Shown: in pieces, positions 15,854-64,000 of the stretch
Numbering within the stretch: position 1 is the first letter of the stretch
How the letters are laid out: the number at the start of each line of letters is the position of its first letter
Assembly (NCBI GenBank): GCA_001794755.1
Contig: MGKT01000006.1
Location: 40,700-104,699 of the forward strand
Source of the DNA: Candidatus Yanofskybacteria bacterium RIFCSPLOWO2_02_FULL_44_18
Lineage (GTDB): Bacteria; Patescibacteriota; Minisyncoccia; 2-02-FULL-40-12; GWA2-44-9
Direction of reading: 5' to 3'
Length of the DNA stretch: 64,000 bases
The notes under the pieces: generated by a model
Told to the model about the DNA's origin: nothing
What the model saw: only the letters and a program-made list of their open reading frames with translations
Database searches by the model: none
Position numbers and translations under genes: made by a program

Positions 15854-15883
15854 AGCCCAGCGTTAATCACGCTGGGCTTTTTG
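15854..15883 (+). terminator. hairpin (9-bp stem) + T-tract overlapping the stop codon of the PEP-utilizing gene; terminator-like on the + strand
   Basis: AGCCCAGCG-TTAATCA-CGCTGGGCT followed by TTTTG. The minus-strand gene's TAA stop sits in the loop. Confidence 0.45.
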
Positions 15884-42528: not shown

Positions 42529-43603
42529 TCACTTTTGATACCTCCCGGGCAGTCATAGTCGGATTAAGCGGCAAACTAATGACGGTATCATGGATTTTTT
42601 CAGAAATAGGAAAAATCATTTTGTTCCATTCTTTGTAAGCCCTCTGCTTGTGGGGTGGAATTGGATAATGGATCAGTGTATCAATACCTTTCTTTAGTAG
42701 ATATTTTTGAAATTCGTCACGCTTTGCAGTACGTACAACAAATAGGTGCCAAACGTGAGCCAAATCATATGATGCAGAAGGTAAGATCAGCAATGGGTTC
42801 TTGATCATGCTAATGTAGCTTCTAGCTATTTTACGTCTTATTACATTTTCTCTATCAAGATATTTAAGCTTAACCAACAAAACCGTAGCTTGAAGTTCAT
42901 CAAGTCGACTATTGATACCCTTGTATTCATTCAAGTATTTCTTGTGGCTACCGTAATTTCTTAAAAGCCGAACCATATCGGCTAATTTCTGATCATTGGT
43001 TGTAACAGCTCCACCGTCGCCTAATCCCCCCAAATTTTTTGAAGGATAAAAGCTGAAACCAGCCGCGTCGCCGAGAGAGCCGACCTTTTTACCCTTATAT
43101 ACCGCGCCGTGAGCCTGCGCGCAGTCTTCAATAATTTTGAGATTATATTTTTTTGCAATCCTTTTCATAGATTCTGAATATCCAACCTGGCCATACAGAT
43201 GGACAACCAGGATTGCTTTGGCTTTCTTGGTAATGTTCTGTTCAATTTTTTCAACGTCAATATTGTAAGTGAGAAGATCGGGTTCGACCGGAACGGGTTT
43301 CAACCGATTTTCACTGATTGATAAAATACTGGCAATATAAGTATTGGCTGGAACTAAAATCTCGTCCCCCTCTTTGAAGACACCAAGCTCCTTGTACGAC
43401 CTTATAATTAGATTCAATGCGTCCAAGCCATTTCCAGTGCCGATAGTATGCTTAACCAGGCAATACTTTGAAAATTCTTTTTCAAATTCAACTACTTTCG
43501 GGCCTAATATGTACCGGCCCGAATCAATGACCTCTGAAATCGCGGCCATTAGTTTTTTTTTGTACGAAACGTTTAGATCTTTAAAATTTAAAAATGGTAT
43601 CAT
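42500..43603 (-). CDS. DegT/DnrJ/EryC1/StrS-family PLP-dependent sugar aminotransferase
   Basis: 367 aa. The PLP-lysine motif is retained (…[19 protein letters not shown]…). Confidence 0.8.
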
Positions 43604-45427: not shown

Positions 45428-46201
45428 TTATTTTTTGCCAACTATAACTATTTCAAAACCGAAATTCCTTGTGAAAAATCTCTCCGTAAACCTATCTAAA
45501 ATTTTGGATAATCTATTTATCGCCCGGCCCCAAAAATGGAACATTTTATGATATCTTTTCAATCGAAACAGTCCATAGCCAACATAAAAACCATCTTCGG
45601 CTTGAACATGAAGTCCTGTATCCTTGAAAGCTTTTCTTAATTCAGACTTCTTGAAAGATTTTTCATAATCATATTCAAATTTTCTTCCGAGTAGTGGCAG
45701 GATGGATTTGTACAATGTGTGAAAATTCCAAAAATTCGGTACGGCCACGATTAATGTCCCGCCCGGCTTTAGTACCCTCACCATCTCCGAAACGGCATCT
45801 ATATGGTTCGTAAACAGCTGAATCACGCCATCAGCAAAAACAACATCAAAATAATTATCTTCAAAACTAATATGCAAACAATCTTGAACGCTAAACTCTA
45901 TATTACGCACATCAAGTTCATCGGCCAAATTTCTGGCTAAATCCAAAGATTCTTCTAAAATATCTGAAACGTAAACTTTACTATTCTTAAAATCCTTAGC
46001 GATACTAACTCCAAACCGTCCGCACCCTGTAGCAAGTTCCAATATCTTACCCGCCGTATCGGGAATATATTTTTTAAAAACTGGATACGCCTCAACAAAA
46101 AATCGATTTGTTATAACACCAAGGTTTGACTCTCCTTCTTTCCAGGTTTTTCTCCAAACATTATTTATTTCCTTTTGGCCAATCTTTCCATTTTCATTCA
46201 T
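45428..46201 (-). CDS. class I SAM-dependent methyltransferase
   Basis: 257 aa with motif I …ILELATGCGRFGVSIAK… and a post-I acidic residue. Confidence 0.7.
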   Translation of the reverse strand: MNENGKIGQKEINNVWRKTWKEGESNLGVITNRFFVEAYPVFKKYIPDTAGKILELATGCGRFGVSIAKDFKNSKVYVSDILEESLDLARNLADELDVRNIEFSVQDCLHISFEDNYFDVVFADGVIQLFTNHIDAVSEMVRVLKPGGTLIVAVPNFWNFHTLYKSILPLLGRKFEYDYEKSFKKSELRKAFKDTGLHVQAEDGFYVGYGLFRLKRYHKMFHFWGRAINRLSKILDRFTERFFTRNFGFEIVIVGKK

Positions 46202-46343: not shown

Positions 46344-48125
46344 TTGTTGTATATTCTGAAGAAAATAACCTATCTCTATAAGCTGACCGCAAGCTTTATA
46401 ACTTCTTACAAAAAAAGATTTGTTTTTATAGTTTTGCTTGGTTTTATAAATGGACTTGCTGGAAGTGTTGGGATAGGCATTATAATCCCATTGTTTTCAG
46501 TGTTTACTGGCAGTGGTATTGCCGGCACAGACTTCATAACCAGCAGTACTGAAAAATTCTTCATGATATTTAAAATCCCACTAACAGCTCCCTCTTTGAT
46601 AATATTTATGGTCCTCCTATTTGCGCTAAAAGCATTCGCACAATTTATCGCTAAATATAATACTGAAAAACTTGCTGCCGGGTTTGAAGAAAATCTCCGG
46701 TCAGAACTTCTTAAAAAAACCCTTAAAACAGGCTGGCCTTATTTGTCTAATCAAAAAATAGGACACCTTGAGAGAACATTATTTTACGATATTAATCAAT
46801 CAACCACGATCTTACTGCAAATTGGAACTGGAATTCTTATATTAACCAGTTTCATTACTTATTCAATTGTTGCTTTTAAAATATCGGCCCCAATTACCTT
46901 GGCAACACTTTTATTCGGTATTATTTTATTCCCGATATTAAAGCCCTTATTTTACAAAATTAGAAAACTTTCAGAACAGACCAGTCAACTCTATAAGCAG
47001 GTAGCCAATCATGTCAGTGAAAATATTATTGGCATTAAAGTGGTCAAAACCACAGCAACAGAAGACGCGGTAATCAAGGCCGGAAACAATTACTTCAAAG
47101 AACTTAAACTTGCCCGGACGAAGTCGGGTATGCACAGTTATGCAATCGGGAGTTCAATAGAACCTATCGGAATTGTTTTCGTCGGAGTGCTGTTCATACT
47201 CACCTACCGCTTACCCGGCTTCAACATCGCTTCATTTGGAGTGGTTGTTTATCTTATCCAAAAAATATTTTCATTCATTCAATCAATACAGGGACAATTT
47301 CAGACTTTCGTCAGCATTACCCCAAATATAGAAAATGTGATTAGTTACCGTTTGGCGATAGAAAAAAACAGCGAGGAAAATCTTGGCTCAGATCCTTTTA
47401 TTTTTATAAAATCTCTTGAATTTGTAGATGTGGGCTTTTCTCATGACAAAGATTCAATTATTCTTAAAAAAATTAACTTATCAGTAGGGAAAGGGCAGAT
47501 GATAGGAATTATAGGACCTTCCGGTGCCGGTAAAACAACAACTGCAGACATTCTTTTGAGGCTCCTTGTTCCTAAAGAAGGACAAATCCTTTTGGACGGC
47601 AAGGATTATTTAAAAACTGACATAAAGGAATGGAGAAAAAATATCGGTTATGTCCCTCAAGATATTTTCTTAATAAACGACACAATAGAAAACAATATAA
47701 TATTTTATGATAAATCCATTTCCAAAGAAGAAATTATAGAAGCAACCAAAACTGCCAACATCTATGATTTCATAGAAGGCTTGCCTGATAAATTCAATAC
47801 TGTTGCTGGCGAAAGAGGCGTAAAACTTTCGGGCGGACAGAAACAAAGAATTGTTTTGGCCAGGGCATTGGCCAGAAAACCTCAGATTTTAATCTTGGAT
47901 GAGGCCACCAGTGCTATAGATAATGAATCAGAGATGCTAATTCAGGAAGCAATACAGAAATTAAAAGGACAGGTTACCGTTATCATAATTGCTCACAGAA
48001 TAAATACTATAATGAGAACCGATTATGTTTTTGTTATTGATGGCGGTAAATTAGTGGAATCTGGGCAGCCCAATGAATTATTAAAAAATAATGCTTCATA
48101 TCTTCATCGGGTTTACCATCTGTAA
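46344..48125 (+). CDS. ABC exporter, fused permease-ATPase (MsbA/type-I exporter-like)
   Basis: 593 aa with six N-terminal TM helices, Walker A GPSGAGKTT, signature LSGGQKQR, and Walker B ILILDEATSAID. Confidence 0.9.
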   Translation: MLYILKKITYLYKLTASFITSYKKRFVFIVLLGFINGLAGSVGIGIIIPLFSVFTGSGIAGTDFITSSTEKFFMIFKIPLTAPSLIIFMVLLFALKAFAQFIAKYNTEKLAAGFEENLRSELLKKTLKTGWPYLSNQKIGHLERTLFYDINQSTTILLQIGTGILILTSFITYSIVAFKISAPITLATLLFGIILFPILKPLFYKIRKLSEQTSQLYKQVANHVSENIIGIKVVKTTATEDAVIKAGNNYFKELKLARTKSGMHSYAIGSSIEPIGIVFVGVLFILTYRLPGFNIASFGVVVYLIQKIFSFIQSIQGQFQTFVSITPNIENVISYRLAIEKNSEENLGSDPFIFIKSLEFVDVGFSHDKDSIILKKINLSVGKGQMIGIIGPSGAGKTTTADILLRLLVPKEGQILLDGKDYLKTDIKEWRKNIGYVPQDIFLINDTIENNIIFYDKSISKEEIIEATKTANIYDFIEGLPDKFNTVAGERGVKLSGGQKQRIVLARALARKPQILILDEATSAIDNESEMLIQEAIQKLKGQVTVIIIAHRINTIMRTDYVFVIDGGKLVESGQPNELLKNNASYLHRVYHL

Positions 48126-48126
48126 T

Positions 48127-48585
48127 ATGCTCGTAAAAAAGATAAAATATCCATTCACGCCAAAAGAGTATAAAAAAATATACTCCAAGGTTCCTCGTCT
48201 ATGCGTTGAGTTAGTCATTCAAGACAAAAAAGGTATTCTTTTTTCTCTGAGAAAAGCAAAAAGTTGGAATGGGATGTGGCATTTGCCAGGCGGAACTTTG
48301 TACCACGGAGAAACACTTTCAAAATGCATTGACAGAGTAGCCAGAGACGAACTTGGCATTAAGTTGAACAAGAAAAAATTCCTAGGATACATTGAATATC
48401 TCCAAGATGAGAAGAACCGACGAAGTTTTGGAACTTCAGTCGGATTATTATTTTTATGCATGATAAAATCGGGAAAAATACGAGGAAGCGATCAGGCTGA
48501 ACAAATAGATTTCTTCAAAAGATTACCAATCAACATCATACCCGCCCATCGAACATTTCTCAAGAAAGTACTCAAAATTAAATAA
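48127..48585 (+). CDS. NUDIX hydrolase
   Basis: About 152 aa with a Nudix-box-like GGTLYHGETLSKCIDRVARDELGI. The start is taken at MLVKK… because the ORF-track start overlaps the ABC gene. Confidence 0.55.
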   Translation: MLVKKIKYPFTPKEYKKIYSKVPRLCVELVIQDKKGILFSLRKAKSWNGMWHLPGGTLYHGETLSKCIDRVARDELGIKLNKKKFLGYIEYLQDEKNRRSFGTSVGLLFLCMIKSGKIRGSDQAEQIDFFKRLPINIIPAHRTFLKKVLKIK

Positions 48586-51318: not shown

Positions 51319-53073
51319 CTAATCAATTTTAAATATTTCATAATGCCCATCATTATATACAGATGTCATGGTAAACGATCTTTGTTTGGCCGAAAGCGGA
51401 CCTCGGGTAATATCACGAATGAAATAAGAGACGTGATATTTTTTTAAATACTGCCTTATATTGGGACGAATAGTTTCATTGTTTAGTTTGAACGCTTCGG
51501 CAACGGCATCATTTTTTTGCACGTTTAAGGTATCCAAAAAGTCCTCTCGGCAAAACTCGGCCCGTATTTTAAACATCGTGCACAAACTATTACGTAATTC
51601 CAATTCATTTTTTTTATAATCAAAATATGAACCTTCATATTTTACATATTCTTCCGTCAATGTCTTCTTGCTGAGATTCTCAAAGTATTGACTGACTAAA
51701 TACCTTTCACGAATTTCCGATGTTTGCATAATATAAAAATGGACATTTAGAAGACCTGGATATAAAACATAATGTTTTGAAAGATAAGGAACATATCTAC
51801 TAAGCTCATCGTCCGCCCAAATAACAACCGGCTCCTTCTCACTACCATCAAGCCAAGCCAAGGGGGCTCGATAATCCTGAACAGCAAGCGCGTCGGTGTA
51901 AGATATCGAAAATGGAGGAGACACCGAACGTTTAATCTCGGCAAATACGGTTAGGGTGCCGATTAACATCAGGAAAAGTGCTACTATGACTACAAACATT
52001 TTTCCGCGATATAGTTTTAGAATTATGAAATAATACAGGAACATGCCGAGTACAAGAGCAAACCAAACAGTTGTAAATCTGTTAACATGCGTAGCAATCA
52101 AAAAATCTTTTCCGGTAATAGCATTACTGACAAGGGCCAGAAAAACGGCCGCGCTTACAATCAAAAAATACCAAATGGTGATTGTTTTTTCTTTCAACTG
52201 TTTTCTAAAAAATAAAACCCAAATCAGGCCGGCCATTATCAGCCATCGGCCATAGTAATATGCTTCAATCGGTGGTAAATGAGTAGCGACAAAACCGACT
52301 CTCTGCACATTCTCCCAGTAACCGGGTGTCAGAAAACTTACTTTAAATGTATAGAATATGGCTGGTGTAGCCATAATTAACGAGAGGAACGATATTTTCA
52401 AAAGAACAGAAAACTTTTTCCACTGCCTGAATATCATTAAATATATGCATGTAAAAAATACGACAAGAACTACAATCTGCCAAAGGTAAGAATATAAGTA
52501 AAACGAAGCGGCAATAGCCAGTCCGAGAAAAATTCCATAACGTTTTTTTTCGGATTGAAGCCAGCTGAACATTGACCAGTTGAAAAAAATGAAGGCGGGC
52601 ATTATTACCTCCATGACTACCGGTCTTACCAGTCCGCCGTATGAAACAACGTAGACCAGAGAAGCAAGAATTACGGCCCATAGGCGACCGACAAAAAATC
52701 TTAGAAATTTATATGTAAATAGGGCAAAAAAAATGCTCGCCGCAATAAAACCTAACAATAATCCCGCATTAAAAGAAATCCCGAACTTCATCGGAAGCGC
52801 AACAATCGTTTCAGCGATGGAAAATACGGGTTGAGAATCGAAACGATGTTCCAAATAATAGTGATTTCCGGACATGGGGAAATCGGCAATTGTTTTATTA
52901 ATACGGGCGAGATAAAAAGTGGAATCAGTAATATAATTCGGAATTACTCCTCGCCAATTATCTTCCAGATTAAATCTAATCCAAAGAATGGGAAGAGCGC
53001 TGGCAAAAGCAATCGCGATTAGCCAGATAAACAATAATATTTTAAATTTATTTTTTCGTTGCATACTCGTCAC
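51319..53073 (-). CDS. large polytopic membrane protein (≥12 TM) with a C-terminal soluble domain; GT-C/YfhO-like candidate
   Basis: 584 aa. It is hydrophobic through about aa 380 and then has a soluble ~200-aa tail. It sits among GT genes. Confidence 0.4.
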   Translation of the reverse strand: MTSMQRKNKFKILLFIWLIAIAFASALPILWIRFNLEDNWRGVIPNYITDSTFYLARINKTIADFPMSGNHYYLEHRFDSQPVFSIAETIVALPMKFGISFNAGLLLGFIAASIFFALFTYKFLRFFVGRLWAVILASLVYVVSYGGLVRPVVMEVIMPAFIFFNWSMFSWLQSEKKRYGIFLGLAIAASFYLYSYLWQIVVLVVFFTCIYLMIFRQWKKFSVLLKISFLSLIMATPAIFYTFKVSFLTPGYWENVQRVGFVATHLPPIEAYYYGRWLIMAGLIWVLFFRKQLKEKTITIWYFLIVSAAVFLALVSNAITGKDFLIATHVNRFTTVWFALVLGMFLYYFIILKLYRGKMFVVIVALFLMLIGTLTVFAEIKRSVSPPFSISYTDALAVQDYRAPLAWLDGSEKEPVVIWADDELSRYVPYLSKHYVLYPGLLNVHFYIMQTSEIRERYLVSQYFENLSKKTLTEEYVKYEGSYFDYKKNELELRNSLCTMFKIRAEFCREDFLDTLNVQKNDAVAEAFKLNNETIRPNIRQYLKKYHVSYFIRDITRGPLSAKQRSFTMTSVYNDGHYEIFKID

Positions 53074-53888: not shown

Positions 53889-54497
53889 ATGCATAATTCA
53901 AAAAATGTAACTCCGGGGCATGGGCTGCTGGAAAAATTTCTTTCTAAAAAAAGGGCCAAGTTGGCCAATCGATTTATCAGGCAGCACCCGACTCGCGACC
54001 GTATTTTGGATATTGGCTGCGGAGTTGTGCCATTGTTTTTGATATCTGCCAATTTTGACGAAAAGATCGGAATCGATCCTTCCGTAAACAATTACTATCA
54101 GAATCATGGAAACCAGAAAATAAATTTGATAAACTTTGATGTAGAGACATGCCAAAACCTTCCGTTTGCCGACAAATATTTCGATGCGGTGACAATGCTC
54201 GCGGTATTTGAACATATTGAACCGGAGAAGCTTCCCTACCTTTTGGGTGAGATCCGCAGAATACTTAAGCCGGGAGGTATTTTTTTTATGACTACCCCTT
54301 GCCCGTGGTCAGACAAACTACTTAAAACATTGGCTAAATACCACATTGTAAGCCAAGAAGGCATGAATGAACATAAAGGCGCTTATACACACAAAGAGAT
54401 AGCTGACTACTTTGCTAAAGGAGGATTTAAATATGAAAAAATGGGCTTTGGCTACTTTGAATTGTTTTTAAACTCTTGGGCTTATGTCCAAACCTGA
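53889..54497 (+). CDS. class I SAM-dependent methyltransferase (Methyltransf_11-like)
   Basis: 202 aa with …ILDIGCGVVPL… and …LKPGGIFFMTTP…. Confidence 0.7.
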   Translation: MHNSKNVTPGHGLLEKFLSKKRAKLANRFIRQHPTRDRILDIGCGVVPLFLISANFDEKIGIDPSVNNYYQNHGNQKINLINFDVETCQNLPFADKYFDAVTMLAVFEHIEPEKLPYLLGEIRRILKPGGIFFMTTPCPWSDKLLKTLAKYHIVSQEGMNEHKGAYTHKEIADYFAKGGFKYEKMGFGYFELFLNSWAYVQT

Positions 54498-54501
54498 TCT
54501 T

Positions 54502-55848
54502 TTAGTATTGCGATAGAAAGTCATCAAACACCCCGCATACATAATCCACCATCTCATCAGTCATACCATGGTGAGCGCCAATAACAAATGTGTTCTTCAT
54601 TATTTTATCAGCGTTAGCAAGTTTCCCCACTACTCGTTTCGGAATTTTCCGAAACGCGGGTTGTCTCAAGATGTTGCCGGCAAACAATAATCTTGTCTGA
54701 ATTTTATTAGCTTCCAGATGTTTTAGAATATCTAAGCGAGTAAACGGAACATTGTCTCTGATCGTAATTGGAAATGCTAGCCAATATGCTTCTGCTTTGG
54801 GCAGATCAGTCGGTAAAAGAAAAAACTTTTCATATTTTTTCAAATAGTTTCCTAACCGATCAAAATTTCGCCTGCGGATTTTATTGAATTCTTGTAATTT
54901 TTTTAATTGCACTAAGCCAAACGCAGCCTGAACCTCGATAGGCTTCAGATTATAACCCACCATTGAATATACGAATTTGCGATCATAAGGTATACCATCA
55001 ATATTGATATTGAAACGTTCCTCCACGCTTTCGTTATCATCTCCAAACCTTCCCCAATCTCTATATGCAAGAGCTCTGGCTAGTAATTTTTCATCATCCA
55101 TGCACAATATTCCGCCGCCGCCGGCTGCAGTGATATTATGAGAGGCATAAAAACTGGAAACCGTTATGTCTGCAAATGACCCGGTCGGCTTACCGGCAAA
55201 TCTGCCGCCTATGGTGTCACAACTATCCTCAATAAAATAAAGTTTATGTTTCCTGCATAGCTTCTGTAGTGTTTCCATGTCATTCAAACTCCCCAATGTA
55301 TGAGGTAAAATAACAGCCCTAGTTTTTCTTGAGATCATTTTGGGTAAATTTTTCAAATCTAGATTGTAGGTACCCAATTCACTGTCGGCTAAAACTGGCA
55401 CTAAATTATTATTCAGAATAGCAGCCAAAGTCGTGGCAAAAGTACAGGCTGTGGTTATAACTTCCGAACCGGGAGGAAGATTTAATATCTTTAAAGAAAG
55501 AAACGTTCCTGAAGAACCGGAATTAACTAACACCCCGTGTTTTTTACCAAAAATAGCTGAAACCTTTTTTGCAAATTCGGCAGAATAATTACCAAGCCCA
55601 AGCCAGCCCTTATCAAGTGCTTCCACTACCGCTTTTTTCTCTTCATCTCCATACACAGCAATAGTGTAATATATTTTGTCAGAACCCGGCTTAAATTTCT
55701 TACTTAAGAAAGTCGGCCCCAAATAAGCCGAGCTTACAAAAAATCTCTGTTCTGATTTATTGTCAGTTAGCACACTGGCAAACTTAGCCACAACCTTGCC
55801 TGCCTCACGCGATTCATTAATTGCTGAGGTTATTTTATTTTTTTTCAT
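54502..55848 (-). CDS. DegT-fold NDP-4-keto-6-deoxyhexose 3-dehydrase (RfbH/DdhC/E1-like), catalytic Lys replaced by His
   Basis: 448 aa. The PLP-site motif reads …ITVSSFYASHNITAAGGGGIL…, with His where aminotransferases have the Schiff-base Lys. The length matches E1 (~440 aa). Confidence 0.55.
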   Translation of the reverse strand: MKKNKITSAINESREAGKVVAKFASVLTDNKSEQRFFVSSAYLGPTFLSKKFKPGSDKIYYTIAVYGDEEKKAVVEALDKGWLGLGNYSAEFAKKVSAIFGKKHGVLVNSGSSGTFLSLKILNLPPGSEVITTACTFATTLAAILNNNLVPVLADSELGTYNLDLKNLPKMISRKTRAVILPHTLGSLNDMETLQKLCRKHKLYFIEDSCDTIGGRFAGKPTGSFADITVSSFYASHNITAAGGGGILCMDDEKLLARALAYRDWGRFGDDNESVEERFNINIDGIPYDRKFVYSMVGYNLKPIEVQAAFGLVQLKKLQEFNKIRRRNFDRLGNYLKKYEKFFLLPTDLPKAEAYWLAFPITIRDNVPFTRLDILKHLEANKIQTRLLFAGNILRQPAFRKIPKRVVGKLANADKIMKNTFVIGAHHGMTDEMVDYVCGVFDDFLSQY

Positions 55849-56323
55849 TAAATTCTTTTAAAAATTTTTTTATTTTAATCCAGGTCTCACCATTTCCAAC
55901 ATTTTTCGAAGATACGAATAGCTGTTCTTCCAAAGCAGGCATCCATGCCGGATAGCGATAAACTAGAACCTTAGCCTGACTTTTACCGATATTCTTAATT
56001 CCATGCAGATATCCTTTTGGAACAAAAACGGTTTTGAAATTGTCACCACCCATCGGAATTTCCCGCTTTGTATTCTTATTCTTATAAATAATACTCGCAA
56101 CTTGCCCATCCAAACAAGTAATAAATAGGTCGGCAGCAGCATGCACATGGTAACCCTTAAATAATCCCGGTTCCACTACTGTCAGATAAATTTGGCCTCT
56201 AATGTGTTTTGTAAAGTTGTCTTTATCACTAACAATTTCTAAGACCCACCCATTTGGTTTTTTGTCTGCATCAAATGTTTCTATTTTTTTACACGGCTTT
56301 GTTTTGATAAAAGCTTTTTCCAT
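55835..56323 (-). CDS. RmlC-like cupin (dTDP-sugar 3,5-epimerase / FdtA-WxcM-type 3,4-ketoisomerase)
   Basis: 162 aa with a small beta-barrel signature (…GYHVHAAADLFITCLDGQ…VFVPKGYLHGIKNIG…). Confidence 0.55.
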   Translation of the reverse strand: MEKAFIKTKPCKKIETFDADKKPNGWVLEIVSDKDNFTKHIRGQIYLTVVEPGLFKGYHVHAAADLFITCLDGQVASIIYKNKNTKREIPMGGDNFKTVFVPKGYLHGIKNIGKSQAKVLVYRYPAWMPALEEQLFVSSKNVGNGETWIKIKKFLKEFNEKK

Positions 56324-57012
56324 TTTGAACTATTTAAAGACACGTCCCGTGGCAGTTTAACGCGAGCACTCTCAATTGAAATCTTTCCGACATTAGGAGA
56401 AGTCCGTCTGGCCAAATCATAAATAGTTTTTCTTTTTCCGGATATGTGTATAACCCCTTTTAACGTGGTCATCAGTGAGGCCTTAATTATATCTGGCGCT
56501 CTTTCTGAAGAAAAATCTGAACATGTCCATTGATCGACAAATGCTTTCTCATATTCCCACGAACCATCCTTTTTGAATCCCGTCCGAATGATCAAAGTAT
56601 TTTGATATTGAACCACAATAGCTTCTCCGATTAATTTTGTCAATGAATAAAAATTAACGGGATTCGGTACATCGTCTTCTTTATAATTTCCAGTCATGCC
56701 GTCAAAAACATAATGAGTCGAAATATAAATGAAACGTTTCCCCTTTGAAGCACGGACCATGTTCTCCGTCCCTGAAACATTTACAGACCAACACTTGGTT
56801 TTTTCTTTTTCCGCGGCCAAAACATCTGTCCAACCGGCACAGTGGATAACAATATCGGGGTTATACTTACCGACCGCATTCACACATTTTTTATAGTCAG
56901 TTATATCAAGTTCCTTGGAATCTGGGGCATGGCATTTAACCAGCTTTCTTATATTGGATCCAAGTGCGCCGGAACCTCCGGTTATTAAAATAATTTTTTT
57001 GGTTTTAAACAT
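56281..57012 (-). CDS. SDR-family NAD(P)-dependent sugar reductase (RmlD-like dTDP-4-dehydrorhamnose reductase)
   Basis: 243 aa with a Rossmann ILITGGSGALGSNI and YxxxK (YSLTK). Confidence 0.6.
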   Translation of the reverse strand: MFKTKKIILITGGSGALGSNIRKLVKCHAPDSKELDITDYKKCVNAVGKYNPDIVIHCAGWTDVLAAEKEKTKCWSVNVSGTENMVRASKGKRFIYISTHYVFDGMTGNYKEDDVPNPVNFYSLTKLIGEAIVVQYQNTLIIRTGFKKDGSWEYEKAFVDQWTCSDFSSERAPDIIKASLMTTLKGVIHISGKRKTIYDLARRTSPNVGKISIESARVKLPRDVSLNSSKWKKLLSKQSRVKK

Positions 57013-58054
57013 TTTTTAATTCCTTGAGCAATTCTCCGGTTATGATTTTTGGCACATATCTTTCTTCAAATAATTTCCTCGCATTAAGTGATAATTTTCG
57101 CAACAAAACACTGTCATTCTTTAACTGAATAATTTTATTGGCTATCTCCCCAGGGTTAGCTCTGGGGCATAATATAGCTGTATCACCATCGGTCAATATC
57201 TCCCGGGAAGCTAAACTGTCTCCGGTAATAATGGCTTTACCGCAAGCTAAATATTCAAAAAGCTTATTCATACTCACCGTCTTTGCTTTGTGTGTATCAC
57301 CAAACCCACCTAAACAGATATCTGCTCGATTAATATAATTAGGAAGTTCTTTATAATCAACGCGATCTGTCCAAGTAATATTTTTTAAATATAAATCTTC
57401 AGCTATTTTTTTTATTTTTTTATATTCTTGTCCCTGTCCTATAATCTGGAAATGGATGCTATCGTCAATTAATATGCCGGCCGCTTTAATAATATATTCT
57501 ATGCCCTGAAGAGGTATAAAATTACCGTGAAAATGAACAATAAACTTTTCATTATTCTTAATAATAAGTTCGGGCTTAAATATGTTATCGTCAGTACCGA
57601 CAAAAACTCTGGTAAACTTTGATACGTCCACATTGAATGTTTCTTTGAAATATTCAATGTTAGCGTTTGTGTCCAGTAATATCTTGTCAGCCAATTTGCA
57701 ACTTAACCAATCCGAGAGCCAATAATACCTGGCCTTTAAGCTTCCGGGCTTAACCAGTTTTCTGTCGAATACCCAAGAATCATAAATAGAATAAAAAGCA
57801 TCCCAGATTATTTTTTTATCTGATATCAGTTTAATAAAAGGAACCATAAACCTGGAATCAGAATAACCGACTAGTACGGCATCAAATCTACTTTTTAGGG
57901 AGAAATATTTTTTTCCCAAATCCGCTAATCCTCTCCAACCGCGTAGTGATGTATTGGCAAATAGAATCTCTACTCCGTTTTCCTTAAGGCCGCGAATGAT
58001 AACTCTGTTCCTAGAGTAGTTGGGATTAAAATTGCCAAAATAACATATTTTCAT
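57005..58054 (-). CDS. GT-B fold glycosyltransferase (GT4-like)
   Basis: 349 aa. The C-terminal half carries …EYLACGKAIITGDSLASRE… (GT4 E-x7-E-type motif). Confidence 0.55.
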   Translation of the reverse strand: MKICYFGNFNPNYSRNRVIIRGLKENGVEILFANTSLRGWRGLADLGKKYFSLKSRFDAVLVGYSDSRFMVPFIKLISDKKIIWDAFYSIYDSWVFDRKLVKPGSLKARYYWLSDWLSCKLADKILLDTNANIEYFKETFNVDVSKFTRVFVGTDDNIFKPELIIKNNEKFIVHFHGNFIPLQGIEYIIKAAGILIDDSIHFQIIGQGQEYKKIKKIAEDLYLKNITWTDRVDYKELPNYINRADICLGGFGDTHKAKTVSMNKLFEYLACGKAIITGDSLASREILTDGDTAILCPRANPGEIANKIIQLKNDSVLLRKLSLNARKLFEERYVPKIITGELLKELKNV

Positions 58055-58707
58055 GATTGATTTTCTTTCTTAACTGCTTTGACGACTAATGTCAACGCGA
58101 AGAGATTGGGAAGTTTTCTCATTAAAAATCGGCTTAATGTTCCTATCGCAAACTTATTCTGCCAGAATGTCCGACATTTTAGAGCAACAATGTCGAGATT
58201 GTGACCATCTAGCATTTTTTTAAGAACATCCCAATTGAACCAATAAACATGGCCCTTACCCCGCCTGTTATTTTCGGGCACCTTGCCCAAAACAACCTGC
58301 AGACGCGCCGGCAGCGAACTAAAATTTGGAACGCTTAAAATTACAAATTTTTTTGTAACTCTTTTTGCCTCATTCAAAAGCTTGGCCGGGTCATATAAAT
58401 GCTCAAGCACATCAAGCATAATTACATAATCAAAACTGTCATTTTCATATGGTAATTTTCCGTCGGAAAAATCAAAATGTTCAACATCGAGACCCTTTAA
58501 TTTGCACTTATTAACCGCTTCTTGAGATATATCCAAGCCTCGGGCATGTATATTGCGAGATTTAAGAAAATCCAAAAGGGTGCCATCGCCACAGCCTAAA
58601 TCTAAAATTGAACCGCCGCTTATCATTTTCAATGCTGATTCGTGATTAAAACCGAGCCATGAATCTCGGTTTCGCCATCTTAAATTCTCAAAATATTCTA
58701 TACTCAT
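58051..58707 (-). CDS. class I SAM-dependent methyltransferase
   Basis: 218 aa with …ILDLGCGDGTLLDFL… and …MLDVLEHLYDP…. Confidence 0.7.
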   Translation of the reverse strand: MSIEYFENLRWRNRDSWLGFNHESALKMISGGSILDLGCGDGTLLDFLKSRNIHARGLDISQEAVNKCKLKGLDVEHFDFSDGKLPYENDSFDYVIMLDVLEHLYDPAKLLNEAKRVTKKFVILSVPNFSSLPARLQVVLGKVPENNRRGKGHVYWFNWDVLKKMLDGHNLDIVALKCRTFWQNKFAIGTLSRFLMRKLPNLFALTLVVKAVKKENQS

Positions 58708-58710
58708 TGC

Positions 58711-60357
58711 TTAGATCTCCGTACAATTAAATATATATGAATTGATATTTTTATCGTTGAATTGCTTGTCTAATTTGCACCTTTCAAGCAAAGGCCAGTA
58801 TCTTCCATTTTTATCAATGGCCGGAAAATCAACGACCATATAATAACCTTTATAAGCATTAAATCTCGGCAAATAGTCGCGAGAGGGAGCGGTAAAAAAT
58901 CTTCCCGCGGATTTATCAGCCAAGATAAGATGATAATTCCCTATATCGTAATATGTTGTCACGTCCTTAATTTTAGGATTATTCAGAACATATTTGACTG
59001 ATGCATCAGCCACCTTCGGGACACTTCCGAATAAACCGCCCAATAAATATTCATTTAAGAATAAAATATTGTAACCGACGCCAATAATAATAAAACCGAG
59101 GATAAATTTTTGTTTGTGAACTTTAGACAATAATCCCGAAATCAATAACACGGCCGCGGCAAGCCATGACCATAATACATATTGGGCGGAAAAATAAAAT
59201 CCGACCGGACCAGAACCGCCGGTGAACGGTATTAGAAAATTGAAGTCTAAATTCTTTATGTGATTTACATAGTTTACTTTCGGGTCAAGCGGCAATACGC
59301 TGTGGGGCATCAATAAGATAACGACGGAAAACAAAATAAACGCCGCTGCAATTAAAAATATTTTCTTAGACTCTTTACGCCAATTAAAGCCGTCCATCAA
59401 TTCAACCAATATTCCAGCCGAAATTATACAACATGGAATAATCAAAAACATCAGGTATCTCTCGACTGTTAATTTCGCGAAATCAAACAAAACCAAATAA
59501 AATATCAGGTTAAAAAACAGAAATACATACCAAAACCGATATCTTTTGACGGTTTCTTGTTTAAATAATCCAGCGATAACCGGCAGGAGAAGAAGTGGAG
59601 AAAGCCAAACAAATGATTTTAAAATTTTGAACGACAACTCAAAGTAAGCCCGAGACGCAAAGTTTAGCGACTGAAAATGTCGGCCGTACTCAATCACGGT
59701 ATTTATTTCACCAAGATTGAAAGAATATAAAGCCGCCGCCAATAAAGCAAAGATGCCAAAAAATTTTAAGACACTAATGGAAACTTTCTTAATATTCAGC
59801 CGGCCAGAATAAAATATCGTAAAAAAATAATCAACAATTAACGCCCCGATAAAAATAATAAAGCTTAATTTAGTAAGAAATCCTCCCGCGATTCCTATTC
59901 CAAAAACAATCCACCACATTTTCTTATTTCCCGAAAGTAGCTCGAGATAAGCGTAATAAGCCAGCAATATAAAAAATGGCAAAATCGCGCCGTCGATATC
60001 TATTTGCAAACTGGCAATGGCGCTATATACGCTTAGGATGTATAGCAATACCCCAAGAAGAGCCGTGTTTGGTTTTTGAGTGATTTTCCAGACTATCAGA
60101 TAAATAAGCGCCAAGGACAAAAAACTGAACAACAATGGTGTAAATCTCAAGTTTTCAAATCCCAGGATATTTCCGGTCAACCTAAAAGTATATTTACCCA
60201 AAGGCGGATGCGGGCTCTCGTAGTCAAAAACGGGGTCGGCCTGCATGGCCCACTTATATTCATCTTGGTGATAAATCTGTTGAACGGCCGGAAGGCGTGT
60301 TATTAAAAAAACGCCCGCAATAAGAATAAAAATCCAAATGTTCTTATTTGTCTTCAT
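58711..60357 (-). CDS. GT-C family glycosyltransferase (ArnT/PMT-like, GT39/GT83)
   Basis: 548 aa with about 12 TM helices. The first extracytoplasmic loop has the DE motif (…HQDEYKW…) typical of ArnT/PMT. Confidence 0.6.
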   Translation of the reverse strand: MKTNKNIWIFILIAGVFLITRLPAVQQIYHQDEYKWAMQADPVFDYESPHPPLGKYTFRLTGNILGFENLRFTPLLFSFLSLALIYLIVWKITQKPNTALLGVLLYILSVYSAIASLQIDIDGAILPFFILLAYYAYLELLSGNKKMWWIVFGIGIAGGFLTKLSFIIFIGALIVDYFFTIFYSGRLNIKKVSISVLKFFGIFALLAAALYSFNLGEINTVIEYGRHFQSLNFASRAYFELSFKILKSFVWLSPLLLLPVIAGLFKQETVKRYRFWYVFLFFNLIFYLVLFDFAKLTVERYLMFLIIPCCIISAGILVELMDGFNWRKESKKIFLIAAAFILFSVVILLMPHSVLPLDPKVNYVNHIKNLDFNFLIPFTGGSGPVGFYFSAQYVLWSWLAAAVLLISGLLSKVHKQKFILGFIIIGVGYNILFLNEYLLGGLFGSVPKVADASVKYVLNNPKIKDVTTYYDIGNYHLILADKSAGRFFTAPSRDYLPRFNAYKGYYMVVDFPAIDKNGRYWPLLERCKLDKQFNDKNINSYIFNCTEI

Positions 60358-61129
60358 CGTTTCTTATTTTCAAAACATCAATTTCTTTTTCCCAATTATA
60401 TTGCCAACGGCTGTATTTTTCAATTAAATCTCGACTTTCAAATCCTGGATGACAGCCTAATTCTACAATTTTTTCCGGGTATCTTTTTCCCAATTTCTCG
60501 GCCGACTTTAAGTCTTTAATCTCTAAATTTCCGGCATTTATAAACCCAACAAAAAAATCATTGCAGGTCAGGCCGAATTTTTTAATTTTCTTTTTTGCCA
60601 GTCCAGACAGAAAATTTAGGAATAATAATTGGACTTGTCTGAATAATCTACCCTCGTTTAAGAATATAGGTTCATTAACAATCCTGATACATGGAATATC
60701 AAACTTTCTGGCCAGCTCGATAATAATATCCATAATACCCGGCAAGAGATGTAAATGCTGATGGCTATTGATAAAGGCCGGCTTTATGCCTGCTCTAGTA
60801 AGTTTATTTGTTTGCGCCTCCAGCTCTTTTCTGATGTCGCCCAACCGGATTAATCCAAGGATATATTTAATAAAAAAAATCTTATGATTTGCGGGAAAGC
60901 TTTTTAAAACGAGCGGCTGTTCTTCCACAAGCACAAAATGAATTCCTATATTGGAAGTGTTTTTTATTCTGATTAAAGCATCTTCAAACGCTTTGCCATT
61001 GGGCATTAAAGATGCGCCGTCAATTAATCTTTGCTCAAAAGCAAAAAAAATGCCGTCGTTAACAGCTTTATTAAGACCCAAATCATCAGCAATGATAAAA
61101 AAACTGCGATTAGAGTGAGTGAATGCCAT
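60344..61129 (-). CDS. YdjC/ChbG/HpnK-family carbohydrate deacetylase
   Basis: 261 aa with …FIIADDLGLNKAVNDGI…, …HFVLVEE… and …NSHQHLHLLP… (YdjC metal-binding signature). Confidence 0.6.
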   Translation of the reverse strand: MAFTHSNRSFFIIADDLGLNKAVNDGIFFAFEQRLIDGASLMPNGKAFEDALIRIKNTSNIGIHFVLVEEQPLVLKSFPANHKIFFIKYILGLIRLGDIRKELEAQTNKLTRAGIKPAFINSHQHLHLLPGIMDIIIELARKFDIPCIRIVNEPIFLNEGRLFRQVQLLFLNFLSGLAKKKIKKFGLTCNDFFVGFINAGNLEIKDLKSAEKLGKRYPEKIVELGCHPGFESRDLIEKYSRWQYNWEKEIDVLKIRNDEDK

Positions 61130-62090
61130 ACGATGTTTCTTTCACGCTATCCTTCTCTATATTGAATGTTTCTGAAACAATATAAAGAGGCCGCCCTTTC
61201 ACTTCATTAAACATTTTAAACATATATTCTCCTATTATTCCCAATACCATTAATTGAATACTGCCCAAAAATAAGACTATCAATGATATTGTTGCGTATC
61301 CGGCCGCTAATGGATTCGGATTCAAATAATGATCCAGGATAACAAAAATTCCCAATCCAACGCTAATTAAGAAAACAATAATTCCAATCCAGAATGATAT
61401 TCTCAATGGAAAAGCCGAAAAAGAAGTAATGCCGCTCAATACTAGTCTGGTCAATTTTTTAATACTATATTTGGGAGTTCCGGCCTTTCTTTTTTCCGCT
61501 ATGTATGTCACATATGTTTTCTCAAAACCGAGCCATTGAATCATGCCTCTCAGATACCTTTCTCTCTCCGGTAATTTTTTTAACGCTTCTATTACTGGTC
61601 TTTTATAGAGAGCGAAATCTGAGATATTCCTAAATTCCAAATTGGTAATAGCACTCATCAGCTTATAATAACTTCGGCCGAGTGCCTCCCTAAATTTAGA
61701 ATTTTGTTTGTTGTCCAATCTTTCGCCAATAACAATGTCATAACCCTCTTCAGCGTGCTTGATAAGTGTCGATATCAGAGATGGCGGATGCTGAAGGTCC
61801 CCATCCATGGTTATCACCATATCGCCCTGAGCAAAATCGATGCCGACATTGAAAGCAGCCTGATGACCAAAATTTCTTGAAAGTTTAATGATTTTAAACT
61901 TTGAATCTTTTTCGGCGGTTTTTTTAATTAATTCTAAAGTATCATCTTTTGAACCATCGTCCACTAAAATAATCTCGAAGCTTTTATTAAGATTCCCACA
62001 AACCTTATTGAGTTCTTCGAGTAAAAAAGGGATAACCTCTTCCTCATTAAAAAGCGGGACAACTATAGATAAATCAATACTTTTTGACAT
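61110..62090 (-). CDS. GT2 polyprenol-phosphate sugar transferase with a C-terminal TM pair (ArnC/GtrB-like)
   Basis: About 326 aa with SIVVPLFNEEEVIPFL…ILVDDGSKDDT…, plus two C-terminal TM helices. The start is taken at MSKSIDL…. Confidence 0.75.
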   Translation of the reverse strand: MSKSIDLSIVVPLFNEEEVIPFLLEELNKVCGNLNKSFEIILVDDGSKDDTLELIKKTAEKDSKFKIIKLSRNFGHQAAFNVGIDFAQGDMVITMDGDLQHPPSLISTLIKHAEEGYDIVIGERLDNKQNSKFREALGRSYYKLMSAITNLEFRNISDFALYKRPVIEALKKLPERERYLRGMIQWLGFEKTYVTYIAEKRKAGTPKYSIKKLTRLVLSGITSFSAFPLRISFWIGIIVFLISVGLGIFVILDHYLNPNPLAAGYATISLIVLFLGSIQLMVLGIIGEYMFKMFNEVKGRPLYIVSETFNIEKDSVKETSYGIHSL

Positions 62091-62160
62091 AATCAAATAA
62101 TACCACAAAAATCTGGATTTGTGAAGATAGGCAAAAGAATTAAATGATTAAAAAGAGATG

Positions 62161-63096
62161 CTAAATTTTTATACTTTCTTTATAGATAGAGATGGTGTCC
62201 GCCACGCCAGCCTTTAAATCAAATTTTGGCTCCCAGCCCAAGACCAATCTCGCCTTATCGTTGACGAGAGTGCCCCTTCTTTGCCTGTCAGAAACAGAGT
62301 GGGTTTTGTATTTTAATTTTTTACCGGTAGAAGCCTCCACTGCATTGATAAAATCAATCAGAGTCATCGCTCTTCCGCCGGAAATGTTAAAAATACCGTT
62401 TCCATCATGAAACATAAGTTTCTTAATACCTTCTGCCAAATCCTTCACATATGTAAAATCCAAAAGTGCTGCTTCGTTAATCTTCAGGTTGCCCTTGCCA
62501 GTCAAAGCATTTTCAATAATTATCTGCGGCACGCGATTGTTAAAATCTCCCGCACCATAGACCGAAGTTGTCCTGATTATGCCGTAATTGTTCGAGAATG
62601 ATTTAATCAAATATTCACTGGCGGCCTTACCAATCCCATAATGAGATGACGGATCAAGGTGCATGATTTCCGTGGCAGCATGGTCAAAATGACCCATCGC
62701 AAAAAGGGATGACATATAAACAATGCGGGCATTGAATTTCTCATTTGCCTTTAGGACATTTACAATTCCCGAGGCTTCAACCGAAAACTGCTCGAACTTA
62801 TCTGGATAATTAGCAAAAGGGATGCTGGCTAAAAATACAATGATATCCGGTTTTTCTTTATTGATGAATCGCTCAACTTGTTTCGGGTCCCTGACGTCGC
62901 CTTTGACTTGCCTCACGTCGGCCAAAAGTTTTTTCCTAAAATTCATTACTTTGGCCGTCCTTTTTGGGTCGTAGTCACTAAACTTTTTATGGATATCAAA
63001 TGTGACGATATCGCCATGGTCTGATTTAAGCAAATTTATCAGCCATGAACTTATAAAACCGTTACCTCCAAAAATAACTATTTTGGGATTTATCAT
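62161..63096 (-). CDS. NAD-dependent sugar epimerase/dehydratase (extended SDR, GalE/RmlB-like)
   Basis: 311 aa with a Rossmann IVIFGGNGFISSWL and YxxxK (YGIGK). Confidence 0.7.
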   Translation of the reverse strand: MINPKIVIFGGNGFISSWLINLLKSDHGDIVTFDIHKKFSDYDPKRTAKVMNFRKKLLADVRQVKGDVRDPKQVERFINKEKPDIIVFLASIPFANYPDKFEQFSVEASGIVNVLKANEKFNARIVYMSSLFAMGHFDHAATEIMHLDPSSHYGIGKAASEYLIKSFSNNYGIIRTTSVYGAGDFNNRVPQIIIENALTGKGNLKINEAALLDFTYVKDLAEGIKKLMFHDGNGIFNISGGRAMTLIDFINAVEASTGKKLKYKTHSVSDRQRRGTLVNDKARLVLGWEPKFDLKAGVADTISIYKESIKI

Positions 63097-64000
63097 TGTT
63101 TTTGAGCAAAATTGTCTACTGTTTTTTCTATAAACTTTATCATATCCGGTGTCGTTCGAGGCGACAAACCGATGAATAAACCATTTCTAAGAACTTTGCT
63201 TGAATTCGGACAAGTGCCTAATGATTTGGCTTTGTTGCCGATTGGGTGAGATAATATATTTCCTGCGAATATCGGTCTCGTTTCAATGTTGTTTTTTGCA
63301 AAATAATTAACAAGATCTGATTTTGGAACGCCATGGATGAAAATGGGAAAAGAAAACCAGCATGGCTCGGATTTTTCTTCAGCCCGAACCGGTTTAAATA
63401 AATTCGGATATTTTGAGAAAATCCTATGGAGTTCTTTAAAATTGTTCGTTCTTATTTTTTTAAATATTTCTAATTTTTTAAGCTGAACCAATCCGACTGC
63501 GGCTTGTAGCTCTAGTGGTTTTAAATTAAAGCCCAAAACCGGATAACTGTATCTTCTGGGATAGTCGGAAGGCAAGCCGGCAAGTTGCGTCGGCGCGTCA
63601 TCTCCATCTTCCCTGCCCCAATCTCTGTATTGTCTTGCCCTGTTTGCAATTACTCCATCGCTAGTAAATACCGCTCCGCCTTCGCCAGTAGTAATGATGT
63701 GGGCGGCATGGAAAGATGTAACTGCGATATCGGCAAGCGATTCTACTGGTTTGTTGTCGTATACTCCTCCGAAGCCATCGCAATTGTCTAAAATTAATTT
63801 TGATTCATATTTTTTTGTAAGTTTTCTAATAGCGACAAGATTGGGTATGTTTCCGGCAATATTTACAGCAATAACCGCTTTAATATTCGGGTGTTTTCTA
63901 AAAGCTTTTTCCAGTTCTTTTTCATCAATATTAAATGTTTCAACTTTTGAATCAACAACAAGCGGTTTGTATCCCGCGTAAATGACTGAACTAAAAGCGG
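63093..64000 (-). CDS. DegT-fold sugar 3-dehydratase (ColD-like; His replaces PLP-Lys), N-terminus beyond the window end
   Basis: Manual translation continues in frame from 64000 to the TTG/ORF start: …DNCDGFGGVYDNKPVESLADIAVTSFHAAHIITTGEGGAVFTSDGVIANRARQYRDWGRED…PSDYPRRYSYPVLGFNLKPLELQAAVGLVQLKKL… The motif SFHAAH (not SF.P.K) resembles GDP-4-keto-6-deoxymannose 3-dehydratase. The + strand ORF 63694..63981 is a shadow. Confidence 0.55.
   Translation of the reverse strand, partial: AFSSVIYAGYKPLVVDSKVETFNIDEKELEKAFRKHPNIKAVIAVNIAGNIPNLVAIRKLTKKYESKLILDNCDGFGGVYDNKPVESLADIAVTSFHAAHIITTGEGGAVFTSDGVIANRARQYRDWGREDGDDAPTQLAGLPSDYPRRYSYPVLGFNLKPLELQAAVGLVQLKKLEIFKKIRTNNFKELHRIFSKYPNLFKPVRAEEKSEPCWFSFPIFIHGVPKSDLVNYFAKNNIETRPIFAGNILSHPIGNKAKSLGTCPNSSKVLRNGLFIGLSPRTTPDMIKFIEKTVDNFAQKQ

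Follow-up and report, generated by a model that had tools for sequence, protein, structure and literature searches.

How might two histidine-bearing DegT-fold proteins in a glycan locus of Candidatus Yanofskybacteria act, and what sugars could they make? The 64-kb stretch of DNA analysed here (the window) carries this locus in its last part, starting at about 36.7 kb, with an initiating Bac_transf enzyme, a flippase, several glycosyltransferases of families 2 and 4 (GT2 and GT4), an ATP-binding cassette (ABC) exporter, a NUDIX protein, methyltransferases and three DegT paralogues, termed DegT-1, DegT-2 and DegT-3 (Table 1). A preliminary description of the same DNA had read DegT-1 and DegT-2 as 3-dehydrases of 3,6-dideoxyhexose biosynthesis, with histidine replacing the lysine that binds pyridoxal 5'-phosphate (PLP). 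Deoxygenation at C-3 has two mechanistic solutions on one fold, hydrolysis in ColD versus iron-sulfur-mediated reduction in E1 and SpnQ. According to a 2022 review of nucleotide-sugar dehydratases, E1 and SpnQ bear a [2Fe-2S] cluster and need a reductase, whereas ColD has no cluster; its 3,4-ene intermediate is hydrolysed, and glutamate serves to regenerate pyridoxamine 5'-phosphate (PMP) (PMC8987622). We propose that DegT-1 and DegT-2 are probably PMP-dependent C-3 dehydratases acting on nucleotide-activated 4-keto sugars, paralogues of the E1/RfbH lineage without the [2Fe-2S] cluster.

Both proteins are encoded as the preliminary description had stated. DegT-1, with 448 amino acids (aa), reads SSFYASHNIT in the open reading frame (ORF) 54502-55848 of the minus strand, and TSFHAAHIITTGEGG lies in frame in the minus-strand ORF 63093-63998, the partial DegT-2. 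Sequence past the window end was read from contig LCAK01000004.1 of the Parcubacteria metagenome-assembled genome GCA_000996445.1, which bears an exact match of the 448-aa DegT-1; on the extended contig DegT-2 has a full length of 403 aa (L001:1545-2756). DegT-1 and the partial DegT-2 match the Pfam family PF01041 with 286 and 178 bits, respectively (cut-off 19.8), and the two are indeed distinct, being paralogues of 37% identity. Alignments by phmmer to solved structures put His237 of DegT-1 (codon CAT, 55138-55140) and His202 of DegT-2 (codon CAC, 63699-63701) on His220 of E1, and the DegT-2 histidine also on His188 of ColD, where a MAFFT alignment with ColD places the histidines of both proteins. 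This column is the Schiff-base position, because the entry of the E1 H220K mutant (3bb8) has a lysine there. The preliminary description had raised the case of a lysine elsewhere in the active-site loop; neither catalytic loop contains one. DegT-3, which lies outside the 54502-64000 span, keeps Lys189 (FYPSK) in the E1 His220 column and works as the internal control for which it had been proposed.

The histidine is invariant in the homologue sets of both proteins (120 each, 240/240 in all), down to identities of 53% for DegT-1 and 42% for DegT-2, so its position is not due to chance; SFHAAHII is likewise an invariant motif of the DegT-2 family. The column of E1 Asp191, the aspartate of the pyridine nitrogen, is Asp in DegT-1, DegT-2 and all 120 DegT-2 homologues, and the equivalent D208 of DegT-1 is invariant in 31 aligned sequences sampling both families. 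Both families also conserve the equivalents of E1 Cys193 and Asp194. Within the DegT fold, DegT-1 and DegT-2 are by these residues assigned to the sugar 3-dehydratase group, as members of the His type, and it is quite likely that both are 3-dehydratases. DegT-2 has a second histidine, His199 (SFHAAH, 63708-63710), three residues before the catalytic one and invariant in its family (120/120). It occupies the position of E1 Tyr217, which is Tyr in DegT-1, E1 and the Lys-type paralogue.

With regard to descent, the preliminary description had set a first protein of RfbH/E1 size against a ColD-like second one, a distinction that has to be revised. Both proteins belong to the E1/RfbH lineage, therefore DegT-2 is not ColD-like by descent. 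E1 (AscC/DdhC/RfbH), the cytidine diphosphate (CDP)-6-deoxy-L-threo-D-glycero-4-hexulose 3-dehydrase of Yersinia pseudotuberculosis (3bcx), is the best PDB match of DegT-1 (E 1.7e-86, with SFYASH-N over SFYPAH-H) and of DegT-2 (E 2.1e-61, followed by ColD with E 1.6e-35). ColD, the guanosine diphosphate (GDP)-4-keto-6-deoxy-D-mannose 3-dehydratase of E. coli (2gms), stays well behind E1 in score, with 151 versus 294 bits for DegT-1 and 126 versus 211 bits for DegT-2. The identities to E1 are 38% and 34% for DegT-1 and DegT-2, respectively, and those to ColD 28-30%. DegT-1, the only one of the two that was modelled, gave an AlphaFold2 model with a predicted local distance difference test (pLDDT) score of 89 and a predicted template modelling (pTM) score of 0.88. 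A Foldseek search with this model revealed E1 as the top match (E 1e-45, TM 0.83/0.89), then perosamine synthase and ColD, and the top 50 matches are all DegT-type enzymes. In a rough neighbour-joining tree, E1 and the DegT-1 clade are neighbours, and ColD falls outside the group of E1, DegT-1 and DegT-2. Besides the residues of E1 named above (His220, Asp191, Cys193 and Asp194), the E1-type segment RDWGR...YD.K..Y is kept. Similar to ColD, DegT-1 also has a Ser-His dyad (ASH, versus SHH in ColD). A 'putative NDP-4-keto-6-deoxyglucose-3-dehydratase' (PDB 9wvy; NDP, nucleoside diphosphate) is a weaker match of DegT-1. The automatic JGI and NCBI names of homologues include 'CDP-6-deoxy-D-xylo-4-hexulose-3-dehydrase' and 'NDP-hexose 3,4-dehydratase', so the core identification itself is not new.

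The likeness to E1 does not extend to its cluster ligands. The E1 sequence has Cys193, Cys251, Cys253 and Cys261 with the spacing C193-X57-C251-X-C253-X7-C261, which we take to be the published [2Fe-2S] motif of E1 (C-X57-C-X-C-X7-C). The preliminary description had suggested a search for this motif, and both proteins lack it. Positions 251, 253 and 261 are gaps or residues other than Cys in DegT-1 and DegT-2 and in 240/240 homologues. The corresponding loop is RDWGRFGDDNESVEERF in DegT-1 (54958-55062) and RDWGREDGDDAPTQLAG in DegT-2 (within 63537-63626), both without Cys, and is 4 and 10 residues shorter, respectively, than that of E1 in the phmmer alignments. Retention of the histidine goes together with absence of the three cysteines in all 120 DegT-1 homologues and with a Cys-free loop in all 120 DegT-2 homologues. 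Only the Cys193 equivalent is kept among the four E1 ligands, and ColD has this residue too. Overall, just two cysteines are conserved in the DegT-2 family. Among the 120 DegT-1 homologues there are four, C135 (94%), C198 (87%), C210 (100%) and C249 (79%), none of which corresponds to E1 Cys251, Cys253 or Cys261.

The second part of an E1-type system is the E3 reductase, which had also been proposed as a search target. No protein of the ferredoxin-NADP reductase or ferredoxin type (FAD_binding_6, NAD_binding_1 or Fer2) was found by Pfam among the window ORFs of at least 120 aa, and the gene tables inspected for related loci (L002-L006, L025-L027, L036 and L037, of which L003 is a JGI contig near-identical to L002) list no E3-type reductase. 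Since the Cys motif is absent and no E3 was seen, the E1/E3 model of abequose, tyvelose and ascarylose formation is not applicable as such. Could DegT-1 and DegT-2 nevertheless be reductive dehydratases of the E1/SpnQ type, holding a redox cofactor by non-canonical ligands (in DegT-1 perhaps C135, C198, C210 and C249) and drawing electrons from a general ferredoxin/flavodoxin system elsewhere in the genome? E1 is the closest relative of both by sequence, and of the DegT-1 model by fold, and the DegT-1 clade has the four partly conserved cysteines. SpnQ, which by description is E1-like with no dedicated reductase in its own gene cluster, uses general reductases encoded elsewhere; it differs from our proteins in having the [2Fe-2S] motif (PMC8987622). 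However, three of the four E1 ligands are missing throughout the 240 homologues, only one cysteine is invariant in the DegT-1 clade and two are conserved in the DegT-2 clade, and neither the window nor eight related loci contain a reductase gene, which makes such a mechanism quite improbable. Judged from their sequences, DegT-1 and DegT-2 are E1-like by descent and ColD-like only in their predicted cofactor set, being His-type, cluster-free and without a reductase partner gene. We consider ColD-style turnover, reductase-free and recycled by glutamate, as the likeliest, and cluster-independent turnover as fairly probable.

A histidine at the lysine position could also be compatible with transamination. 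If DegT-1 and DegT-2 were mainly 4-aminotransferases or 3-deoxy-4-aminotransferases, they would pass the amino group of PMP to C4, as SpnQ does in vitro, and give 4-amino-4,6-dideoxy sugars in place of 4-keto-3-deoxy sugars. A change at E1 Tyr217 is reportedly among those used to push E1 towards aminotransferase behaviour, and DegT-2 has its invariant histidine at this very position. In the presence of PLP and glutamate and without a reductase, SpnQ shows aminotransferase activity, whereas ColD and E1 show none under the same conditions (PMC8987622). The locus already has a Lys-type aminotransferase in DegT-3, and the strict preference for His over Lys in the 240 homologues favours dehydratase chemistry, so a mainly aminotransferase function is very unlikely for either protein.

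On the assignment as cluster-free C-3 dehydratases, and drawing on the ColD and E1 literature, we infer the following order of steps. PMP would form a ketimine with C4 of an NDP-4-keto-6-deoxy sugar. His237 of DegT-1 or His202 of DegT-2 would then take the C4' proton, with expulsion of the 3-hydroxyl group. Without a cluster or an E3-type reductase, hydrolysis of the 3,4-ene intermediate would follow as in ColD, yielding a 3-deoxy-4-keto sugar and ammonia, and an amino acid donor, for instance glutamate, would re-aminate PLP to PMP, again as in ColD. Several points weigh against this assignment. The histidine alone is no guarantee of net deoxygenation, because the His-type SpnQ transaminates when no reductase is present (PMC8987622). 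DegT-1 and full-length DegT-2 score 404.1 and 285.1 bits against the NCBIfam RfbH equivalog model (NF011936), both under its cut-off of 423. The four partly conserved cysteines of DegT-1 might conceivably form a non-canonical cluster. In addition, neither a nucleotidyltransferase nor a bona fide 4,6-dehydratase is encoded in the 64-kb window, and none of the window's proteins reaches any 4,6-dehydratase model.

The last of these points concerns the substrate, on which the neighbouring genes bear. The span 54502-64000 comprises ten minus-strand genes, all co-directional and with overlapping or almost abutting ends, in the transcription order DegT-2, SDR-B (SDR, short-chain dehydrogenase/reductase), GT2 (PgfS/ArnC-like), YdjC deacetylase, PMT_2 glycosyltransferase of the C fold (GT-C), S-adenosylmethionine (SAM) methyltransferase, GT4, short RmlD-like SDR, cupin and DegT-1. 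The two His-type proteins thus lie in one tightly packed operon of the glycan locus.

Table 1. Positions in the window of the three DegT paralogues and of the genes around them.
Feature	Position	Strand	Description
DegT-1	54502-55848	-	448 aa; candidate E1/RfbH-lineage His-type (PMP-dependent) NDP-4-keto-sugar 3-dehydratase
Cupin	55835-56323	-	162 aa; like the C-terminal (C3-epimerase) domain of S. aureus CapF
Short SDR	56281-57012	-	243 aa, truncated RmlD-like; motifs STHYVFDG and YSLTK
GT4 glycosyltransferase	57005-58054	-	PF00534, 79.5 bits; stop overlaps the SDR start by 8 nt
Class-I SAM methyltransferase (MetW-like)	58051-58707	-	PF07021, 98 bits; PF13489, 68 bits
GT-C glycosyltransferase (PMT_2/ArnT-like)	58711-60357	-	548 aa, polytopic; PF13231, 48.6 bits; PF02366, 31.5 bits
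YdjC-family carbohydrate deacetylase	60344-61129	-	PF04794, 157.8 bits
GT2 polyprenyl-phosphate glycosyltransferase (PgfS/ArnC-like)	61110-62108	-	PF00535, 126.5 bits
SDR-B	62161-63096	-	311-aa extended SDR; PF01370, 98.5 bits; motifs YGIGK and MSSLF
DegT-2	63093-64000	-	last 302 of 403 codons, truncated at the window end; second candidate E1-lineage His-type 3-dehydratase
DegT-3	42500-43603	-	Lys-bearing canonical sugar aminotransferase; PF01041, 342 bits; Lys189 at 43037-43039
NDP-hexose C-methyltransferase-type protein	44109-45383	-	PF08421, 65.6 bits; PF08484, 114 bits

The cupin beside DegT-1 had been called RmlC-like. RmlC was ruled out, since PF00908 is absent from its matches at E <= 0.001; the family found instead is the CapF C-terminal cupin PF14667 (33.7 bits, cut-off 28.7), with weaker matches to FdtA and Cupin_2. 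It matches the cupin domain of Cap5F in the PDB with E 2e-7 and has no NCBIfam match, and is probably an epimerase acting on the 4-keto intermediate. The short SDR matches PF04321 over its N-terminal half (125 bits), the rmlD model TIGR01214 with 120 bits (cut-off 224) and the RmlD-like protein of Sulfolobus (2ggs) with E 1.5e-32, and is a probable NAD(P)H-dependent C4-ketoreductase. The trio of short SDR, cupin and DegT-1 is conserved in another Patescibacteria contig (L006). On the DegT-2 side, SDR-B overlaps the DegT-2 stop codon by 4 nt, an arrangement of translational coupling, and its orthologues follow DegT-2 in L025 and L037. Its PDB matches are weak and about equal (55-57 bits), namely Pal, a deoxythymidine diphosphate (dTDP)-glucose dehydratase homologue, GalE and CDP-tyvelose 2-epimerase. 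SDR-B was rejected as the missing 4,6-dehydratase, as it has no Asp/Glu dehydratase pair (MSSLF) and its matches are non-specific; it is probably a ketoreductase or an epimerase. The GT2 scores 268.7 bits against PgfS and 187 bits against ArnC, and the YdjC protein 108 bits against HpnK and 91 bits against chitin disaccharide deacetylase, all under the NCBIfam cut-offs. The GT-C would use a polyprenyl-phosphate-sugar donor outside the membrane. DegT-2 occurs together with SDR-B, GT2, YdjC and PMT_2 again in L025, L036 and L037.

The methyltransferases had led the preliminary description to heavily methylated sugars, which was an inference from gene counts only. One C-methyltransferase is present as stated, and three class-I SAM methyltransferases were found instead of four. 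They do not all lie alongside both DegT genes: the C-methyltransferase, the class-I methyltransferase at 45428-46201 and the Lys-type paralogue fall outside 54502-64000, and a second class-I methyltransferase (53889-54497) ends 5 bases before this span. The NDP-hexose C-methyltransferase family acts on NDP-4-keto-6-deoxyhexoses, and the presence of a member suggests a pool of such sugars in the cell.

Does this gene set make a plain 3,6-dideoxyhexose? A classical CDP- or GDP-hexose pathway would run from a nucleotidyltransferase and a 4,6-dehydratase through E1/E3 or ColD to an epimerase and a reductase, giving sugars of the abequose, tyvelose, ascarylose or colitose type. His-type enzymes are present, the cupin and RmlD-like reductase beside DegT-1 resemble the epimerase/reductase pair of ascarylose formation, and the automatic homologue names quoted above are of this kind. 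However, cytidylyl- and guanylyltransferases, 4,6-dehydratases for CDP-glucose or GDP-mannose and E3 are all missing from the window, and the cluster motif is absent. Gmd and ColC have no homologue above threshold near the DegT genes (NCBIfam). The orthologous DegT-2 loci L036 and L037 instead have a 351-aa FnlA/PseB-type 4,6-dehydratase of uridine diphosphate (UDP)-N-acetylglucosamine (UDP-GlcNAc) close by, together with an RmlD-like SDR, and the operon itself encodes a CapF-like cupin and a YdjC deacetylase. The classical pathway is therefore an unlikely origin of the product.

A UDP-N-acetylhexosamine (UDP-HexNAc) route is fitted at least as well by the CapF-like cupin, YdjC, the ArnC/PgfS-like GT2 and the FnlA/PseB-like dehydratase of the orthologous loci. 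UDP-GlcNAc would be available without a dedicated nucleotidyltransferase, because the organism makes peptidoglycan, as shown by the Mur ligase, MraY-type and FtsW genes in the window. The short SDR and cupin resemble a split CapF of the CapE/CapF (FnlA/FnlB) pathway to UDP-L-N-acetylfucosamine, in which the FnlA/PseB-like dehydratases adjoining DegT-2 orthologues would have their counterpart, and the combination of GT2, deacetylase and GT-C mirrors ArnC/ArnD/ArnT and PgfS/PgfM. Both likenesses have limits: the window has no CapE/FnlA gene, all family scores are under equivalog cut-offs, and the known versions of these routes include no 3-dehydratase. KasR of kasugamycin biosynthesis, by description a PLP-dependent dehydratase proposed for a UDP-GlcNAc-derived sugar, offers a precedent for 3-deoxygenation of a 2-acetamido sugar. 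We regard a 3-deoxygenated 6-deoxy sugar as the likely product; a 2-acetamido-2,3,6-trideoxy sugar or a branched sugar is about as plausible as a 3,6-dideoxyhexose, and the plain 3,6-dideoxyhexose of the preliminary description is possible yet somewhat doubtful.

In the proposed DegT-1 branch, the CapF-like cupin would epimerise the 3-deoxy-4-keto sugar, the RmlD-like SDR would reduce C4 and the GT4 would transfer the sugar. In the DegT-2 branch, SDR-B would reduce or epimerise, and the GT2 would load a sugar on polyprenyl phosphate; after possible de-N-acetylation by YdjC, this sugar would be transferred by the GT-C outside the membrane. Because GT2, YdjC and GT-C lie between the two branches, at least one product is probably placed on polyprenyl phosphate, possibly de-N-acetylated, and moved to an acceptor outside the membrane. 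An uncultured, ultra-small and genome-reduced bacterium of the Candidate Phyla Radiation (CPR) would thus devote some 30 kb of its DNA to an elaborate surface glycan that has two distinct 3-deoxy branches and that is probably relevant to CPR life attached to host cells.

The sequence upstream of DegT-2, past window position 64000, adds a further possibility for its branch. Adjoining DegT-2 is a conserved 307-aa ORF (no Pfam match at E 0.1); the other genes are those of a transketolase split in two (276 + 307 aa), an SDR bearing the Gmd/UXS-like motif GSSSEYG, GT4 proteins and a B12-binding radical SAM enzyme. L036 also has the block of SDR, N- and C-terminal transketolase halves, unannotated ORF and DegT-2, which L025 and L037 do not share. 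In yersiniose biosynthesis, the E1 product receives a two-carbon branch from the thiamine-dependent enzyme YerE. For the miharamycin and amipurimycin pathways, transketolases are the proposed source of a hydroxyacetyl branch on keto sugars (PMC12247030). In view of these precedents, a branched 3-deoxy sugar, yersiniose- or miharamycin-like, is a reasonable conjecture for the DegT-2 branch; alternatively, the split transketolase might supply sedoheptulose-7-phosphate. The transketolase itself lies at L002:6027-7780 and its block at L002:5238-8747, L003:5126-8747 and L036:5217-8965, co-transcribed with the SDR and the unannotated ORF of about 307-320 aa. The GSSSEYG SDR is frameshifted into pieces of 67 and 177 aa at L002:5238-6049, on this genome's own contig just past the window, and is an intact 307-aa ORF at L003:5126-6049; it is a candidate dehydratase or decarboxylase.

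The tree also bears on the history of the cluster. Since E1 nests among these clades and ColD stands outside, the cluster loop may be a late addition in the E1 lineage. The findings could be joined into one picture: uncharacterised E1-lineage 3-dehydratase clades that never had the cluster or lost it would bridge ColD-type and E1-type C-3 deoxygenation as a missing intermediate, the cluster loop would have come late, and the DegT-2 branch with the split transketolase would make a yersiniose-like 4-C-(two-carbon)-branched 3-deoxy sugar by way of lipid phosphate and the GT-C. Taken as a whole, this picture is speculative and rather unlikely to hold in every part. If true, a large, conserved and cluster-free E1-lineage set would show the origin of the redox version of the reaction and provide simple reductase-free catalysts for 3-deoxy sugars.

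The pathway is of an ordinary kind with an uncharacterised enzyme variant, and the finding of 3-dehydratases is in itself unsurprising, as automatic pipelines already give 'NDP-hexose 3-dehydratase'. The literature searched contained no description of cluster-free E1 homologues and no paper linking CPR bacteria with 3-dehydratases. Within that literature, large E1-lineage clades uniformly without the cluster appear to be undescribed. The same appears to hold for the distribution of DegT-1, whose homologues, where a source organism is named, come from CPR bacteria without exception; proteins near-identical or related to DegT-1 carry the names Candidatus Yanofskybacteria, Moranbacteria, Minisyncoccia and other Parcubacteria.

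Relatives of DegT-2 were also found in phages. A phage-borne sister clade (about 390 aa, 45-47% identical, motif SFHAAHIIT, Cys-free loop) is present at L027:2177-9784 and in the IMG/VR contigs L028-L035, usually with an SDR before and a GT2 after the gene; L027 also has an SU10-type major capsid protein and HNH/NUMOD3 endonucleases. This phage carriage appears to be undescribed within the literature searched, and phage-encoded sugar 3-dehydratases are worth a separate look. The homologues P0222 and P0236 and the viral L034:6001-6690 have an insertion of about 256-260 aa between ILD and NCDG, ending in ...HEFFANGxLV[S/H/K]N followed by C. The insertion is assigned as an intein, whose +1 residue would be the invariant active-site Cys (E1 Cys193 equivalent). 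P0237 and P0189 have an N-terminal extension of about 145 aa, with an HNH family match in P0237 and no family on record for P0189.

The B12-binding radical SAM protein (about 505-525 aa) recurs in CPR glycan loci, at L002:2421-3938 (minus strand), L006:12983-14539, L036:17615-19189 and L037:1-620. It shows weak matches to the HpnJ, PhpK, BchE and AprD4 models and could be a C-methylase or a sugar-modifying enzyme of the diol-dehydratase type. In the window, at 46344-48585 (plus strand), the gene of a 593-aa exporter, a fusion of transmembrane and nucleotide-binding ABC domains, and that of a small NUDIX hydrolase (164 aa) overlap. An ABC exporter is found again in L004, L006 and L025, close to homologues of DegT-1 or DegT-2, and a NUDIX gene in L004 and L036; possible functions are flipping of lipid-linked glycans and hydrolysis of NDP-sugars, respectively. 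Another GT4 at 41241-42528 (minus strand) is divided into two overlapping ORFs (41533-42528 and 41241-41549) that represent the first and second halves of PF00534, a frameshift that marks either a pseudogene or an assembly error. Three large minus-strand ORFs in or beside the glycan locus, 51319-53073, 38777-39922 and 35011-36657 (584, 381 and 548 aa), have no Pfam match at E 0.1 and may be membrane proteins of the polymerase or ligase type. Elsewhere in the window, a 1255-aa protein at 15863-19630 (minus strand) combines an N-terminal PPDK_N ATP-binding domain with two matches to the mobile domain of phosphoenolpyruvate (PEP) utilizers, an unusually long architecture for a relative of PEP synthase or pyruvate phosphate dikinase (PPDK).

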